In this document: positions 4,338-61,751 of the stretch, piece by piece | How positions within the stretch are numbered: the stretch's first letter is position 1 | Layout: every line of letters starts with the position of its first letter | Assembly: GCA_029932585.1 (NCBI GenBank) | Contig: JAOZPU010000001.1 | Location: 630-64,629 of the forward strand | DNA from: Spirochaetia bacterium | GTDB taxonomy: Bacteria; Spirochaetota; Spirochaetia; B11-G9 | Direction of reading: 5' to 3' | Length of the DNA: 64,000 bases | The notes under the pieces: model-generated | What the model saw: only the letters and a program-made list of their open reading frames with translations | Databases searched by the model: none | What the model was told of the DNA's origin: nothing | Translations under genes and position numbers: made by a program

Positions 4338-4409
4338 GCGAGAGTAGCTCAGCGGTAGAGCTCCACCTTGCCAAGGTGGATGTCGAGGGTTCAATTCCCT
4401 TCTCTCGCT
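4338..4409 (+). tRNA. tRNA-Gly (anticodon GCC).
   Basis: Sequence GCGAGAGTAGCTCAGCGGTAGAGCTCCACCTTGCCAAGGTGGATGTCGAGGGTTCAATTCCCTTCTCTCGCT. It has a 7-bp acceptor stem GCGAGAG/CTCTCGC, a D-arm GCTC/GAGC, an anticodon stem CCACC/GGTGG with loop TTGCCAA, and a T-arm GAGGG-TTCAATT-CCCTT. Confidence 0.9.
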
Positions 4410-11063: not shown

Positions 11064-12611
11064 CTACTCCCATTCAATTGTAGCAGGTGGTTTACTCGAA
11101 ATATCATACACAACTCTACCAATTTCCGGAATTTTATTTGTTAAAAGAGAAGATATTTCTAAAAGATCAATTGATTCAAATGGAAATACATCGGCTGTCA
11201 TTCCGTCAACACTTTTTATAGCTCTTAAAGCAAGAACATAACCATATTCACGGGCATCACCTGTTACACCAACCGATTTTATTGGAAGAAGCACACAAAA
11301 AGCCTGCCATATTTTATGGTAGAGATTACGTTCTTTTAATTCATTTATATACAAAAAATCTGCGTCCTGAAGAATTCTTACTTTTTCTACTGTAATATCT
11401 CCAATAATTCTAACTGCAAGCCCTGGTCCAGGGAAAGGGTGTCTTTCTATTATTCTTTTATCTATTCCCAAACTTAATCCCAGTTTTCTTACTTCGTCTT
11501 TAAATAATTTATCCAGAGGTTCAATTATTAAACCATCATTTCGCTTTTTTTCAACTAAAGGAGACCGTACATTATGATGAGATTTTATTATTTTTGCATT
11601 TTCCCCAACACCTTTTCCTGATTCAATAAGATCAGTATAAAGTGTACCCTGAGCAAGAAAATAATTTTCTGAAATAGAAACAGGTAATTCCTTTTCTTGA
11701 ATCTTTATAAAAAGATCACCAATTATTTCTCTTTTTTGCTCTGGGTCTGATATTCCATTTAAAGAATGTAAAAATAACTCAGCTGCATCAACAATTTTAA
11801 TATTTTGAGCACCTAGGCTTTTTAAATATATCTCAATTTCAAGAGTTTCATTTTTTCTCATTAACCCGGTATCAATATACATAAGAAATATATTTTCTTT
11901 TGGTAGAGATTTCAAAAGGATTCCAGCTACAACAGAAGAATCTACTCCACCGGAAATTAAGAGAAGGACCTTATTATTTTTAATTTTTTCCTTTAATATC
12001 GTTGATATTTGATCACTGAATTGCTTCATAGTCCAATTTTTATCTATTTTACAAATTTTAAAAATAAAATTACTTAATATCTCTTTTCCATAATCACAAT
12101 GGCTAACTTCAGGATGAAATTGAAGACCATATAAATTTAATTTTTTATTATATCCCGCTGCCGGATGATTTGCAGATTCAGCTATCAGTTCAAAACCATC
12201 TCCTAAAATTTCCAAACTGTCTCCATGGCTCATCCATGATGTAAAACCGGAGGGTACTCCATTAAACAGGTCTGTATCTTGTAATATGGATACAGAAGCT
12301 TTTCCATATTCTTTTGTAATAGAAGAATTTACTTTGCCATTATTCATTACAGTCATTTGCTGAAAACCATAACAAATTCCTAATACTGGCAATCCTGTCA
12401 AATATATACCAGCATCAGGTTTTGGAGCCCCTTTTTCATAAACAGAAAAAGGAGATCCAGACATAATAATACCTTTTGTATCCAATAAAAAATCATCATT
12501 AATTATGCTATTACCTGGATAAATTTCACAAAATACCCCCAATTCCCTAATTCGCCTTGCAATTAACTGAGTTGTCTGGGAACCAAAATCTAAAATTATT
12601 ATTTTGTCCAA
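11064..12611 (-). CDS. guaA: GMP synthase (glutamine-hydrolysing).
   Basis: 515 aa with an N-terminal class-I GATase (GICYGFQ, catalytic Cys), the ATP-PPase motif SGGVDSSV and the C-terminal end ...IEWE. Confidence 0.95.
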   Translation of the reverse strand: MDKIIILDFGSQTTQLIARRIRELGVFCEIYPGNSIINDDFLLDTKGIIMSGSPFSVYEKGAPKPDAGIYLTGLPVLGICYGFQQMTVMNNGKVNSSITKEYGKASVSILQDTDLFNGVPSGFTSWMSHGDSLEILGDGFELIAESANHPAAGYNKKLNLYGLQFHPEVSHCDYGKEILSNFIFKICKIDKNWTMKQFSDQISTILKEKIKNNKVLLLISGGVDSSVVAGILLKSLPKENIFLMYIDTGLMRKNETLEIEIYLKSLGAQNIKIVDAAELFLHSLNGISDPEQKREIIGDLFIKIQEKELPVSISENYFLAQGTLYTDLIESGKGVGENAKIIKSHHNVRSPLVEKKRNDGLIIEPLDKLFKDEVRKLGLSLGIDKRIIERHPFPGPGLAVRIIGDITVEKVRILQDADFLYINELKERNLYHKIWQAFCVLLPIKSVGVTGDAREYGYVLALRAIKSVDGMTADVFPFESIDLLEISSLLTNKIPEIGRVVYDISSKPPATIEWE

Positions 12612-13825
12612 AGGCCTGTTCTCATCATTGTTTGTTCCCTTTTATACCCTACAGAAATAATTCCAATAGACGTATTTGTATAATCTTCAATAAATTTTAT
12701 ATATTCCCGGGCATTCAGAGGTAAATCATCATAATTTTTTACTTCTGAAATATTTTCTTTCCAACCTTTAAAGCTCTTCAAAATTGGTGTCGCTTTTGCA
12801 AGCATATCTCTGGAAGATGGGAAATTTATGATTTCTTTACCATCTACTTCATAAGCTACACATACTTTTATTTCATCAATTTCATCGTATACATCAATAT
12901 GAGTTAATACTAAATGATCTATAGAATTTGTTCTGCACGCATATTTTAAAGCTACAAGATCCAGGTATCCACATCTTCTTGGTCTCCCTGTAGTAACACC
13001 ATACTCTCTACCAAGATCACGGATATACTCTTCAAGTTCACCATCTCTCTCTTTTAAAAATTCACTGGGAAAAGGTCCGTTACCCACTCTTGTAGAATAG
13101 GCTTTAAAAACACCAAAAACCGTGTCAATTGAACCAGGACCAACACCTCCTCCGAGAGAGGCTCCTGCTGCAGCTGCATATCCAGAGGATACAAATGGAT
13201 ACGTTCCTATATCAAGATCAAGCAGAATCCCCTGAGCACCTTCAAAAAGAACTTTTTTGTTACTGTAATTATCCATAAAAGAAGCTAAATCGATCATCAT
13301 ACCTTTCATACGATCAATAAATGGAGACAAAAAATCCATCTCTTCTTTAGTTAGATATTTTAAAAAATTGGAATCTCCAAGATCACAAACTCTTATACCT
13401 TCTCTTTGAGCTTTTTGAGAATAAGTAACTCCTATACCTCGACCTGTTGTACCAATGGGAAATCTTCTCTCTTTTTCAAGATCAATATCAATTTGTTTAT
13501 AAGAAGGCATTACAATATGAGCTCTATCGGAAATAAAAACTCTACCCTCCCAGGATATACCCTGGTCTGTTATAGTCTTAAGTTCTTTAAATAATGAATC
13601 AGGATCAATTACCATTCCTGAACCTAAAACAACCTTTGTCTTTGGATATACAATTCCTGAAGGGATAAGATGCAATTTATATGTAATTCCATCTGTAACT
13701 ATTGTATGTCCTGCATTTGCACCACCGGAAAAACGAACAACAAGATCAGCTTCTTCTGATAGATAATCTACTATTTTCCCCTTACCTTCATCTCCCCATT
13801 GAGCGCCTATTACTACTGAATGCAT
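12599..13825 (-). CDS. purA: Adenylosuccinate synthetase.
   Basis: 408 aa starting MHSVVIGAQWGDEGKGKIVD (the GDEGKGK P-loop). Confidence 0.95.
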   Translation of the reverse strand: MHSVVIGAQWGDEGKGKIVDYLSEEADLVVRFSGGANAGHTIVTDGITYKLHLIPSGIVYPKTKVVLGSGMVIDPDSLFKELKTITDQGISWEGRVFISDRAHIVMPSYKQIDIDLEKERRFPIGTTGRGIGVTYSQKAQREGIRVCDLGDSNFLKYLTKEEMDFLSPFIDRMKGMMIDLASFMDNYSNKKVLFEGAQGILLDLDIGTYPFVSSGYAAAAGASLGGGVGPGSIDTVFGVFKAYSTRVGNGPFPSEFLKERDGELEEYIRDLGREYGVTTGRPRRCGYLDLVALKYACRTNSIDHLVLTHIDVYDEIDEIKVCVAYEVDGKEIINFPSSRDMLAKATPILKSFKGWKENISEVKNYDDLPLNAREYIKFIEDYTNTSIGIISVGYKREQTMMRTGLWTK

Positions 13826-20187: not shown

Positions 20188-22227
20188 TTATAATGTTCTT
20201 AAGCCACCACTATTTTTTTTGGCTTTCTTTTTTGTTTTTCCTGTATCAACAACACCTTTTCTTTTTCGTGTTTTTGTAGCAGGGGCTTTATCTTTTTTAA
20301 TAGTAGTTGCAGGTTCATCTGCAGGAGTATTCAGCATATCAAGATACGACTGACCTTTATTTTTTTTAGATCCTTCTTCAATCTCGTCCAGTGCATTAGG
20401 ATCTCCAAAATGCTGATCAATGTCACTACGTACAGTTGATCTTCTTCTTGAGAAAGACGCAAATGCTGCATCCTGAAAACCTTTAGATACACCATTAAGG
20501 AACTCATTAAGTACGTTTGCCATACCATCCAATGTAGCTTTCTTTCTTTTAATAGAAGTAATGTCTACATCCAGAAGAATACCTGTCTGTATATGATAGG
20601 GATTTATCATATAATCAAACCTGTTAAATTCCTGTTCCAGGAACTCTAATCTTTCTTCCATAACACGTCGTTGCATTGGGTATTTATAACCATACATTGA
20701 CTGAAGTTTATCCTTCATAAGAACAAGTCGTTTCTTAACTTCATCTTTTTCAAAAAGATATGTTCTATTTCTTTCTTCAACTTCAGTTTCTGCAGCTTGC
20801 ATGAAAGAGATCTCGTTCCAAACTTTATCAACATCTTCATATACAGGATCATTTGATTTAAGTTTTATCTTTTTCTTAATTTTAGTTCTATAAACCTTTG
20901 CAAGATCTTCATAGTCAGCAACACGTTTAAAAAATTTGCTGTCAACGTATACCATATCAAGAACATCCCATAAATGCTGAACTTCAAGCTGAAATGCCGC
21001 AATTTGTACGTCATAAGCTTTCTGCTCTTCTACAAGCTGTGCATTATCATAATACTTCATTCTAATACTATATCGTTCATCAGGAAGTATATTTGGATCT
21101 GTATCTTCATATTCCCGTATAATCAATTCACGTCCATTTTTAAGGTTTTCAATATACTGATAACCCATTCTTGAAGTATCAAGTATAGATGTAATTGAAT
21201 TAATAGCTGTGTTATAACCCCGATTTCTAATATTCTCAAGATCAATAATCTTTTTAAGGTTTTCTCTAATATTAAGTTGATCAAACTCTTCAGGATCAAT
21301 TTCAGCTCGCAGCCCTTCAAGTCTGGTCATAAGTGTTTTTGCCATATATTTATAACGATTAGACTTTGCACTTTCAGCATCATCTGAAGTATGACTCTCT
21401 ACTTTTTTCATCTTCTCAAAGACAATTTCACTGTCTGCAAGTTCTTCGAGACCCTGATCAATACGATCATCTTTTAACTGATCAATTTCCTTGTCAATTA
21501 AGTCGATTATATTCTTTGCAATTAGATCTTTTATTAGATACTCAACTGTTACCTGATAATGGAATATAGGACTTATTAACTCAGAATCAAGTATATTTAC
21601 AGATAATTTTACTTCAGAAACAGTTTTTGGTTTCTTTAAATTATCTTTAAAAGCACATTTTACAACAGAATAAGCGTTTTCGCCCCTTATAAAAGCTCCA
21701 ACATCAGTTTTCTGACGTAATAATGAATTAGTAAGATTTTCGAGCTCATTAACACCTCTTTGTATATGCCCCTGGAGGTGTCCATACATGTTAACAATTG
21801 ATTTCTCAATTTCACCAGTATTAAACCTGTCCATTCCTCCAACTTCATCAAGAAGTGTAGCAATCTCTTTTGGTGTGTATCTTGTCAGAACTTTCATTTC
21901 CTCTCGGTCAACAAAATTTCTAACCTTCTTAATCATCTCATCTTCAGTGGTTACAATGTACCTATTGAACATGTTCTGATAGTTTTGGTTAAAGTAATTA
22001 TATACTTTTTCTTTTAAACCACCCATAACATCAAGTTCTTTCAAAACATCGTTTGGTAACTTGGTTGAAACGTGATTCATTACTTTGTCGACTTCTTCCT
22101 CTAGAAGATTGTCAACTTCTGCCTGCTGATCTCGACTCTCCTGGGCAAGGGAGTTTCGAGAACCCACCGCACTCCTCTTTTCCGGATGAAAGACCATCGG
22201 GCTTTTCGGTAGATCTATACTTCCCAT
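20188..22227 (-). CDS. Large charged coiled-coil-rich protein, possibly the cytoplasmic filament protein CfpA of Treponema-type spirochetes.
   Basis: 679 aa. Treponema pallidum CfpA is about 678 aa and its gene lies two genes from ppdK, as here, so the call rests on length and synteny. The first roughly 50 codons are GC-rich and codon-atypical, so the true start may be downstream ([11 protein letters not shown]...). Confidence 0.5.
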
Positions 22228-22293
22228 TACACTCTCCTTCGATTATGACTGTACTATAATAATATCAACATGTTGTTAAAAATGTAAAGCAAG

Positions 22294-22306
22294 TTTTTTT
22301 TTTTTT
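22294..22306. repeat. Homopolymeric T13 tract in the divergent promoter region between the CfpA-like and vWA genes.
   Basis: Counted directly from the sequence. Confidence 0.8.
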
Positions 22307-22366
22307 ACTTTTTTGCTTTAGCTGAAGAATCATACATGTTAGTATAGTCATTATAGAGGTAAAACC

Positions 22367-23482
22367 ATGAATAAAAAAGCTATTTTTATGTTTTTTTTAT
22401 GTTTTTTATTATTAAAGACCATTTTTACTTTATCAGCCGACCAAAGAGTTGGGAATATTGAAATTTATCTGGTTCTTGACAAATCTTCATCAATGATTGA
22501 AGAGATAGATTCTGTTAAGGAATATGTAACAGAATCTATTATTAATAAATTAGTTCTTGAGGGTGATTATTTTTTACTTGTTCCTTTCTATGGTAAGACT
22601 GATGAATCTTATAACGGATATATTAATTCAAAAATTGATATTACAAGGTTACAAAATAATATAAGTGAAATAGAAGCTGATGGCCTTTATACTGATATAG
22701 GCAATGCACTAAATTATCTTAGAAAAAATATTATTACTGAAAATGAATTGTCCAGAAAATATATGCTCTTAATAACTGATGGAAAACAGGAGGCACCTCC
22801 TGATTCGATCTTTTACAGTCCTGATGGTAGCTTTAATCATGAATTTTTAGCTAATACAAAAGAAATTCAGAAAAAAGGATGGAAAATTGTAGTAATGGGT
22901 ATTGGTACAAATACAGCAGCTAAAGAGATTGCAGAAGAGTTATCAGCTGGATATAAAAATGTATCAGAACTTTCCACAGCACAGGAAATTTCTGATACAC
23001 TGGATGATTTTTTAGGCAGATTTGATATAGTTTCTTTTAATAAAAATATCGAATTAGATAAAAATGGTATTGGCACTATAGATTTAGAAATTAAAGGTGA
23101 AGGTTTTTCTGAAATAAAGGATATTAAAATAAATGAAATACTAATGAATTATAATGATAATAAGAGTAACAACATTCTAAATACACCTTTTACATTTAAT
23201 ATTAACATTGATGAAACATTAAAAGTTTCGATCCCTGTGAATATAACTCCCCGGGATGATGAATATCCTGCTAATATTATTTTTGTTTTTGAAGGCGAAA
23301 ATGCTTTTTCTCCTTCTGTTATTAGTCTTAATATAAAAAATAATAAAGGAATTTCTTTTTATTATTATATAATTATAATTTTTGTGATATCTTTTATAAG
23401 TTATTTTGCTTACAGAATATGGCAGCGAAAAAGATTGGAGGACGATAACAATTCAAATGAATCAAAAAAAGGGGAAATTTGA
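22367..23482 (+). CDS. Exported von Willebrand factor A (vWA) domain protein with a C-terminal membrane anchor.
   Basis: 371 aa with a signal peptide and a complete MIDAS (DKSSS, a Thr in LYTDIGNAL, and ITDG). It has a C-terminal TM helix (YYYIIIIFVISFISYFAY) followed by a charged tail. Confidence 0.75.
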   Translation: MNKKAIFMFFLCFLLLKTIFTLSADQRVGNIEIYLVLDKSSSMIEEIDSVKEYVTESIINKLVLEGDYFLLVPFYGKTDESYNGYINSKIDITRLQNNISEIEADGLYTDIGNALNYLRKNIITENELSRKYMLLITDGKQEAPPDSIFYSPDGSFNHEFLANTKEIQKKGWKIVVMGIGTNTAAKEIAEELSAGYKNVSELSTAQEISDTLDDFLGRFDIVSFNKNIELDKNGIGTIDLEIKGEGFSEIKDIKINEILMNYNDNKSNNILNTPFTFNINIDETLKVSIPVNITPRDDEYPANIIFVFEGENAFSPSVISLNIKNNKGISFYYYIIIIFVISFISYFAYRIWQRKRLEDDNNSNESKKGEI

Positions 23483-61325: not shown

Positions 61326-61751
61326 TTAAGCCATTGCTCCCATTAAAAATACCATAACAAACAGAGCTACAGTTTCAACAAGACCAAGTACCATTATATA
61401 GTTACCGAAACCTTTACCTGTTTCAGCAAGTGCATCAGAAGCAGCAGCTCCTGCCTTTCCCTGCATGTAAGCAGAAGCACCCATAGCAGCACCACCAAAT
61501 ATACCAGCACCAAGTACAAGCCAATCGGGTGAAGTTGAAGCCAAAAGTGTGTTCATTAGTATGTACCCGTAAATAGTCTGAGTCAGGGGAGCTCCAACAA
61601 ACGTAATTAGTGTAAAGGGAGCAGGTCTATTCTGTGCATAACACTTTTTCCATGCACCAATAGCTGACATACCAGCAGCACCTGCACCTAAAGCAGATCC
61701 AAAAGCCGCAAGAGCAATTGCTGCTCCAATTCCAAATAATCCAAAACTCAT
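61326..61751 (-). CDS. V-type ATPase proteolipid subunit K.
   Basis: 141 aa. It has two TM hairpins and is Gly/Ala-rich, with a conserved carboxylate in LVETVALF. Confidence 0.8.
   Translation of the reverse strand: MSFGLFGIGAAIALAAFGSALGAGAAGMSAIGAWKKCYAQNRPAPFTLITFVGAPLTQTIYGYILMNTLLASTSPDWLVLGAGIFGGAAMGASAYMQGKAGAAASDALAETGKGFGNYIMVLGLVETVALFVMVFLMGAMA

Follow-up and report, generated by a model that had tools for sequence, protein, structure and literature searches.

The GC-rich, codon-atypical 5′ end of a spirochaetal cfpA gene: a coding start with silent sites probably under purifying selection

Cytoplasmic filament protein A (CfpA) is the sole protein of an intermediate-filament-like ribbon, and its loss leads to cell-division and chromosome defects in Treponema denticola (PMC3398590). 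In Treponema pallidum, CfpA transcripts have been tabulated among those of highly expressed genes, with a rank for cfpA below that of earlier work (PMC8525777). Here, we examine the 5′ end of the cfpA gene found on the minus strand of a 64,000-nucleotide stretch from an uncultured Spirochaetia bacterium (assembly GCA_029932585.1, contig JAOZPU010000001.1, positions 630 to 64,629), hereafter the window, where some 150 nucleotides (nt) form an island that is rich in G and C (GC) and atypical in its codons within an otherwise AT-rich genome. According to our analysis, and with a probability of about 0.7, the coding sequence of cfpA genuinely begins with this island, the silent sites of which are under purifying selection, probably in connection with translation or with the messenger RNA (mRNA).

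The closest described systems are the conserved rare-codon clusters, in which it is the rarity and not the identity of the codons that is conserved (PMC5438181), and the position-dependent codon usage of gene 5′ ends, for which both a ramp and structure avoidance have been discussed (PMC4069614). The cfpA locus shares with these systems about 45–50 atypical codons at the gene start, a reduced synonymous rate there, and an atypicality that is kept across homologues whatever their genomic GC. As far as sequences allow us to judge, it shows the two traits by which such clusters are recognized, i.e., codons atypical for both gene and genome, and an atypicality positionally conserved in homologues. 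In contrast to the usual A/T enrichment, which is ascribed to structure avoidance, the bias of cfpA in this AT-rich genome is towards G/C-ending codons; moreover, its constraint extends over ~150 nt, whereas the usual initiation region covers ~30–40 nt, and it is specific to this gene, the other open reading frames (ORFs) of the window being devoid of such an effect. A reduced synonymous rate at the start of enterobacterial genes, which the cfpA pattern matches, was reportedly described by Eyre-Walker and Bulmer in 1993, while the 5′ codon ramp and position-dependent codon usage are said to have been treated by Tuller in 2010 and Goodman in 2013. The 5′ end of cfpA is thus to be seen as a new and clear example of an already known kind of phenomenon. 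A third class of systems, the structured 5′ leaders and cis-regulatory RNAs (Rfam families, RNA thermometers, CsrA-bound leaders), resembles the island in its position next to the ribosome-binding site, its conserved nucleotides and its GGA-containing Shine-Dalgarno (SD) region, but the island lies within coding sequence and has neither a covariance-model match nor a conserved structure, covariation or an excess of motifs at silent sites.

Coding start and N-terminal peptide

The 679-residue product of the gene matches the cfpA equivalog profile NF040882 with a score of 1169.6 bits (cutoff: 500), its residues 5–608 aligning to profile positions 1–604 of 605. Its relatives in the databases are 73–95% identical, several of them being named CfpA by their sources, and identity to proteins so named is 70–95%; the local copy of Pfam yielded no match to a CfpA model for this protein. 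Compared with known CfpA (NF040882; TP0748 of T. pallidum), it is alike in its N-terminus, its length and its strong conservation, and no difference is seen at the protein level. It is the source that differs from the known CfpA hosts: an uncultured, low-GC (~31%), marine-type spirochaete lineage represented by metagenome-assembled genomes only, the genomes nearest to the window being uncultured Spirochaetota of that kind.

To delineate the coding start, 80 species-level cfpA loci were taken from GTDB representative genomes, 79 of which are full-length. The homologous ATG is the first codon of each of these 79 orthologues and sits behind AAGGAG(AG), the AAGGAG part being kept in essentially all leaders. 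Further upstream, the layout of the predicted promoter (an A-tract followed by CTTTACA and (T)GATAAT; Table 1 for the window) recurs in most of the 79 orthologues, at genomic GC contents from 31% to 64%; this putative promoter looks both very strong and conserved throughout the family. The encoded N-termini open with MG(S/A)IDLPKSP(M/N)V(F/Y)HPEK(R/P) and, in an alignment of 47 proteins, F13, H14, P15, K17, the eleven consecutive residues S19–Q29 and R32–Q35 are invariant. When the first 52 residues were used as the query of an exhaustive HMMER search over 1.84 billion representatives, almost only protein N-termini were matched, apart from two weak matches in the interior of long proteins that are unrelated. 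That the ATG at 22227 is the true coding start of cfpA is therefore practically certain.

The sequence-only reading, made without database searches, had instead proposed that the real start might lie near 22080, at M50, with the upstream ORF remaining open merely because GC-rich sequence has few stop codons, or that the N-terminus was a recently acquired extension. Under such a hypothesis of a misannotated start or a non-coding insert, the protein would begin at M50 and the GC-rich stretch would be a leader, a non-coding RNA or a recent acquisition. The segment is indeed GC-rich and codon-atypical, and an antisense ORF (22053–22259) is likewise open through it, but all orthologues, as well as distant homologues, conserve the peptide, which the family profile includes from residue 5, the SD is placed at the upstream ATG, and the antisense frame is open in no more than 14 of 78 orthologues, no other frame being conserved. 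The shared methionine and the near-invariance of residues 1–50 in the orthologues exclude that translation starts at M50, that the ORF is open by chance or that the N-terminus was acquired recently, so that this alternative is hardly credible. The same reading had itself named conservation of these residues at the protein level, beside peptide evidence, as what would speak for a coding N-terminus, and such conservation is what the orthologues display. Annotations should keep the upstream ATG at 22227, which is correct, and place no RNA gene at the island.

Distant CfpA-like proteins (616–660 residues) also keep HPE..SA(V/L)GSRNSL, which is at odds with a recent origin of the N-terminus. Among the more divergent sequences (P0132, P0139, P0147 and P0149–P0152; 616–841 residues, ~50–67% identical over the N-terminus), the motif is followed by EEVDKILNH..KLPPEVL. 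These sequences suggest a wider family, of which HPE..SA(V/L)GSRNSL would be the hallmark. A search of PDB sequences found no solved relative of the window CfpA, and the AlphaFold2 model computed from the 47-sequence alignment is poor (mean predicted local distance difference test score of 46); in this model, the first long helix begins at residue 26, residues 1–25 being devoid of helix. The peptide may thus tentatively be regarded as an unstructured N-terminal segment preceding predicted long helices, and we infer that it could act in filament assembly. The motif containing SA(V/L)GSRNSL deserves to be flagged as a defining and functionally unexplored part of the filament protein.

Codon usage and silent-site conservation

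The GC content amounts to 48.3% in 22080–22230, 54.5% in 22110–22210 and 55.9% in codons 7–37, for a mean of 30.8% over the 64 kb of the window (standard deviation of 5.4% for 150-nt windows), and the GC-richest 150-nt stretch of the whole window starts at 22087. The sequence-only reading had given ~55–57% for the island, a value that holds for its core of ~95–100 nt and is too high for the full 150 nt, whereas the Pro/Ser/Arg/Ala-rich peptide that it quoted is the correct minus-strand translation of codons 7–37. The GC content expected from this peptide was computed by drawing codons from the usage either of 31 long ORFs of the window or of the rest of cfpA. For codons 7–37, the expectation is 0.43–0.45 (observed: 0.559; z = 4.8–5.0), and 17 of the 31 codons end in G or C against 7.0–7.5 expected (z = 4.6–4.7). 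Amino-acid composition accounts for about half of the GC excess of the island, and the remaining excess of GC at third codon positions (GC3), at a z of ~4–5 beyond the amino-acid expectation, bears out the earlier impression of a departure from the local codon bias. The codons responsible are rare among synonymous ones (within-family frequencies of 0.08 for CCG, 0.04 for GCG, 0.06 for both GTG and GTC, 0.05 for AGC, 0.10 for TCC, 0.11 for both GCC and CGA, and 0.14 for AGG); CCG, for instance, occurs three times in the island and never in the rest of cfpA.

At face value, a conserved Pro/Ala/Gly/Arg/Ser-rich peptide encoded in an AT-rich genome might be enough to explain the island, the codon excess then being noise. 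Such a peptide does raise the expected GC to 0.40–0.45, and composition fully accounts for the two other GC-rich spots of the window, at 61326–61751 and 13027–13270 (z of 0.3 and 1.4, respectively). Yet, the residual excess (z = 4–5) is extreme among the 15,719 windows of 45 codons drawn from the 31 long ORFs, the top ten for GC3 excess all lying at the cfpA 5′ end, and the excess codons are shared and conserved in relatives, which makes composition alone a very improbable explanation. A general 5′ effect of the genome was also rejected as a sufficient cause: over 36 ORFs, the GC3 of the first 45 codons exceeds that of the rest by a mean of +0.03 only (standard deviation of 0.07), the largest difference being that of cfpA (+0.21). 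In the window gene, GC3 is 0.44 in the 5′ block and 0.23 in the rest, and the 5′ codons are atypical with respect to both the rest of the gene (z of −6.0) and the other ORFs (z of −5.1).

Silent-site conservation was studied within the clade of the window, i.e., nine sequences (the window, L001–L004 and L081–L084) with protein identities of 81–95%. There, synonymous codon differences are 0.07–0.33 in codons 1–45 and 0.33–0.53 gene-wide (~0.12 in codons 1–45 between the window and its nearest relatives; 5/43 at the 5′ end vs. 189/491 in the rest for the window and L001), with Fisher p-values of 0.001–0.06 for the 5′ reduction in nine of ten clade pairs. Across the whole of cfpA, the 31-codon windows with the lowest synonymous difference all start at codons 1–23. 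Moreover, when considering columns in which an amino acid with degenerate codons is invariant, a single codon is used by all nine sequences in 55% of the columns (n = 42) of codons 1–45, against 11% (n = 437) elsewhere. Pairwise nucleotide identity delineates one contiguous conserved block, from the promoter (~−100) to ~+145, where it stays at 0.97–1.0 before falling. The codons of the island (CCG and the run GCG GTG GGT TCT CGA AAC TCC CTT GCC CAG) are also found in relatives with a cfpA GC3 of 0.35–0.43 and, even with respect to Marispirochaeta (GC3 of 0.7), the 5′ codons of the window differ by 0.38 vs. 0.67 for the rest (p = 0.009). Amino-acid conservation was discarded as the cause, because residues 136–180 and 541–600 are more conserved and nevertheless show silent differences of ~0.5. 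Altogether, the silent sites of the first ~50 codons are very probably under purifying selection, and the suspicion, voiced from the sequence alone, that something acts at the nucleotide level was well founded.

This low divergence might also result from recombination, if the conserved promoter and 5′ end anchored homologous exchange between related species while GC-biased conversion raised GC3. Since the pattern exists in many separate species pairs, this would require repeated transfers of the same 250 nt; furthermore, it predicts a raised GC3 in GC-rich genomes, where the 5′ GC3 is actually below that of the rest. Divergence is low at all positions of the contiguous block, intergenic part included, as exchange would have it, but the intergenic part holds the conserved promoter, so that selection already accounts for it. 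Even though several independent lineages of low GC show a raised GC3, also as expected from conversion, we consider recombination distinctly improbable.

Purifying selection thus remains the preferred explanation for the silent sites, and the GC of the island has two layers: first, the near-invariant Pro/Ala/Gly/Arg/Ser-rich peptide fixes GC-rich first and second codon positions, lifting the expected GC from ~0.31 to ~0.43; second, G/C-ending synonymous codons that are rare in the genome, and the same as in higher-GC relatives, are very probably held by selection over a block spanning the promoter to about codon 50. When the genome of the lineage drifted to ~31% GC, the rest of cfpA followed, while the 5′ block did not and, on the simplest account, kept an older, GC-richer state.

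Beyond the window's clade, the all-pairs synonymous comparison was replaced by clade-restricted analyses and by 37 phylogenetically independent pairs, in which the 5′ synonymous difference averages 0.29 vs. 0.36, with a very uneven effect. The reduction is strong in pairs such as L005–L010 (1/43 vs. 0.33), L038–L046 (2/42 vs. 0.45), L026–L033 (0/41 vs. 0.20) and L013–L016 (6/42 vs. 0.42). The GC3 of codons 1–45 is buffered across the family (0.15 + 0.54 × GC3 of the rest), being above that of the rest in low-GC genomes and below it in mid- and high-GC genomes. In 80% of the 79 orthologues, the first 44 codons are atypical with respect to the rest of the same gene (z < −2; mean z of −3.3, for +0.46 in control windows) and, when the usage of flanking genes serves as the reference, none of the 13 windows is more atypical than the 5′ segment in 42 of 76 loci, where chance alone would give ~6. 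The atypical codons themselves differ by clade, G-ending in that of the window and A-ending in Sediminispirochaeta-like genomes. The only sequence-level conservation throughout the family concerns codons 2–6 (GGA AGY ATA GAT CTA), which holds even at a genomic GC3 >0.9; measured against the usage of each genome, the column z is 9.8 for GGA, 14.9 for ATA, 5.4 for GAT and 18.6 for CTA, with GGA, ATA and CTA ranking as the top three of 492 columns. It is well known that the few codons directly following the start are constrained, and the pattern of codons 2–6 fits this. What is conserved at the family level is a property, codon atypicality, and not a sequence or a structure. As a side observation, codons 2–6 include the palindrome TAGATCTA at 22210–22217.

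RNA elements, folding and overlapping frames

The sequence-only reading had envisaged an embedded non-coding RNA or a structured leader, to be checked by an Rfam scan and by covariation among orthologues. Both strands of 21800–22500 were scanned with Rfam 15 (including the signal recognition particle RNA), and no match with an E-value ≤10 overlaps 22050–22260; at the gathering threshold, the single match in the whole window is a transfer RNA (tRNA) at 4338–4409, and ARAGORN likewise predicts only a tRNA-Gly at 4338. Compared with dinucleotide shuffles, folding is not unusually stable for positions −35 to +168 (z of −1.05) and +1 to +138 (z of −0.04), nor for the opposite strand (z of −0.39). 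RNAalifold, applied to positions −20 to +180 of 78 orthologues, returns three pairs at −0.43 kcal/mol, i.e., essentially no consensus structure and, when the centroid structure of the window is imposed on these 78 sequences, 70.3% of the cells are paired vs. 69.9% in shuffles, with no excess of covariation. Neither the RNA gene nor the structured leader is thus backed by these comparisons. As for the short hairpins noticed in the sequence, they can be drawn but are without statistical or evolutionary support: in the GGAGU/ACUCC helix, three of the five pairs are unpaired in 33–41 of the 78 orthologues. Ribosum-scored alifold runs (M-type, N-type and all 137 sequences) gave scattered pairs at a codon-periodic spacing, which we rejected as an artefact since they turned out to involve mainly invariant first and second codon positions. 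The helix suggested by ribosum-scored alifold between nt 61 and 103 was discarded, as it mostly joins invariant first and second codon positions, shows a mismatch at nearly every third position, and has a lone covarying pair that follows GC content.

A comparison with synonymous sequences is less uniform. The window sequence folds more stably than its synonymous permutations (z of −2.4) and than usage-based recodings (z of −1.7), while the family means are −0.32 against permutations and +0.87 against recodings, the latter denoting less structure. These values bear on the idea that a discrete cis-acting element in the first 150 nt (a regulator binding site, a small RNA target or a clade-specific RNA structure) freezes the silent sites. 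In addition to the slightly better folding of the window sequence, this idea can draw on the strong silent-site conservation being contiguous with the promoter and leader, on the presence of an SD-like AGGAGAGU again at codons 29–31 and on the family-wide preference for GGA at codon 2 (z of 9.8). On the other hand, there is no Rfam match, no stability in excess of dinucleotide shuffles and no consensus structure or covariation in the 78 orthologues; the silent sites differ between clades, leaving no shared sequence motif beyond codons 2–6; and the counts at silent sites equal those of synonymous permutations (z of ~0), be it for GGA (3.92 vs. 3.99 expected), AGGA (2.04 vs. 1.89 expected) or GATC. 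A discrete folded RNA motif is the less likely option, since codon atypicality, and neither a common sequence nor a common structure, is what the family conserves, and a cis-acting element of any of these kinds appears unlikely, without being far-fetched. In particular, regulation through CsrA or Dam was rejected for lack of an excess of GGA, AGGA or GATC, the GGA of codon 2 being the sole one individually preferred.

Alternative reading frames are not conserved either, being free of stops in 1, 3, 14, 7 and 14 of 78 orthologues. The antisense ORF mentioned above, on the plus strand, encodes 68 residues from a TTG start, and it is probably open only owing to the GC richness of the stretch. In the window's clade, codons 18–21 (22165–22176) comprise an SD-like AGGAG and, 4 nt further on, a GTG in frame (Val21), but this GTG is not family-wide (23 of 79 orthologues). 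Similarly, the 8-mer AGGAGAGT of the true SD recurs at codons 29–31, where the SD-like sequence is not conserved across the family.

Candidate mechanisms and other features of the window

If selection maintains the silent sites, it would act on some trait of translation or of the mRNA in a strongly expressed gene, a role that we favour because the promoter looks very strong and conserved and because the T. pallidum transcripts are listed as highly expressed. Candidates include a control of early elongation (a ramp or a conserved rare-codon cluster) and a 5′ mRNA state suited to ribosome loading or decay. This mechanistic part is put forward tentatively, at somewhat less than even odds, and both the reach of the constraint (~150 nt) and its specificity to one gene do not fit the simplest mechanisms.

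Several observations weigh against the interpretation as a whole. The silent-site constraint is uneven, being strong within the window's clade and also among Marispirochaeta- and Sediminispirochaeta-like lineages, but missing or reversed in some high-GC Treponema-like pairs (0.59 vs. 0.27 for L040–L044), and the all-pairs synonymous comparison is saturated at the family level. When measured against the usage of flanking genes, family-wide atypicality is weaker (mean z of −1.4), and part of it could reflect the relaxation of an expression-linked bias at gene starts. Finally, a G/C-ward bias in an AT-rich genome is the opposite of the usual A/T-ending 5′ effect; combined with a fold more stable than synonymous permutations, it makes structure avoidance alone unfit for the window lineage.

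A bolder proposal, which we hold to be rather unlikely, assigns to the first ~150 nt of the cfpA mRNA a regulatory function of their own, overlapping the invariant N-terminal peptide. Peptide and silent sites would then both be constrained, and the block would resist GC drift in many spirochaete lineages, either because a programmed pause in early elongation couples the production of this segment with the assembly of filaments or because the region offers a platform to which a post-transcriptional regulator binds. Whatever the mechanism, cfpA offers a clean natural example of silent-site selection holding a ~150-nt block at 50–56% GC in a genome down to 31%, and a codon-atypical 5′ end is a recurrent trait of this phylum-level family, whose genomes range from 31% to 64% GC. 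It is thus a good test case to separate models in which 5′ codon bias reflects a ramp, mRNA accessibility or the binding of a regulator.

Table 1. Coordinates of the cfpA features and of the two other GC-rich spots in the window.
Feature	Position	Strand	Basis or description
cfpA, cytoplasmic filament protein A, 679 residues	20188–22227	minus	NCBIfam NF040882 equivalog match
ATG start codon	22225–22227	minus	homologous ATG in 79/79 full-length orthologues, and SD
Shine-Dalgarno AAGGAGAG	22232–22239	minus	read from the sequence; 6-nt spacer to ATG
Promoter-like region of cfpA	22259–22306	minus	consensus scan, 10/12 matches plus TG
A13 tract	22294–22306	minus	part of the predicted cfpA promoter
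−35 TTTACA	22283–22288	minus	part of the predicted cfpA promoter
TG-extended −10 TATTAT	22259–22264	minus	part of the predicted cfpA promoter; 18-nt spacer to −35
First 50 codons, suppressed synonymous change in the window's clade	22078–22227	minus	synonymous differences and identity profile
Codons 2–6, GGA AGT ATA GAT CTA	22210–22224	minus	strongest silent-site conservation family-wide (column z vs. usage of each genome)
GC-rich core, codons 7–37	22117–22209	minus	55.9% GC; rare G/C-ending codons CCG (three), GCG, GTG, GTC, AGC, TCC, GCC, CGA (two), AGG
Second GC-rich spot	61326–61751	minus	141-residue Gly/Ala-rich membrane ORF; GC 0.437 vs. 0.434 expected
Third GC-rich spot	13027–13270, inside ORF 12599–13825	minus	Gly/Ala-rich segment; GC 0.42 vs. 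0.40 expected

The neighbour diverging from cfpA (22367–23482, plus strand) encodes a protein of 371 residues with a signal-like N-terminus and a hydrophobic C-terminal segment, which by eye we take to be a von Willebrand A domain protein; the identity of its 5′ end between the window and L002 is only 0.57–0.83, i.e., without a conservation comparable to that of cfpA. Regarding the two other GC-rich spots, the ORF around the third (12599–13825) looks like an adenylosuccinate synthetase (purA-like), and the 141-residue ORF of the second, which has no Rfam match, adjoins a membrane ORF of 608 residues and, on our reading of its sequence, resembles a V-type ATPase proteolipid subunit.

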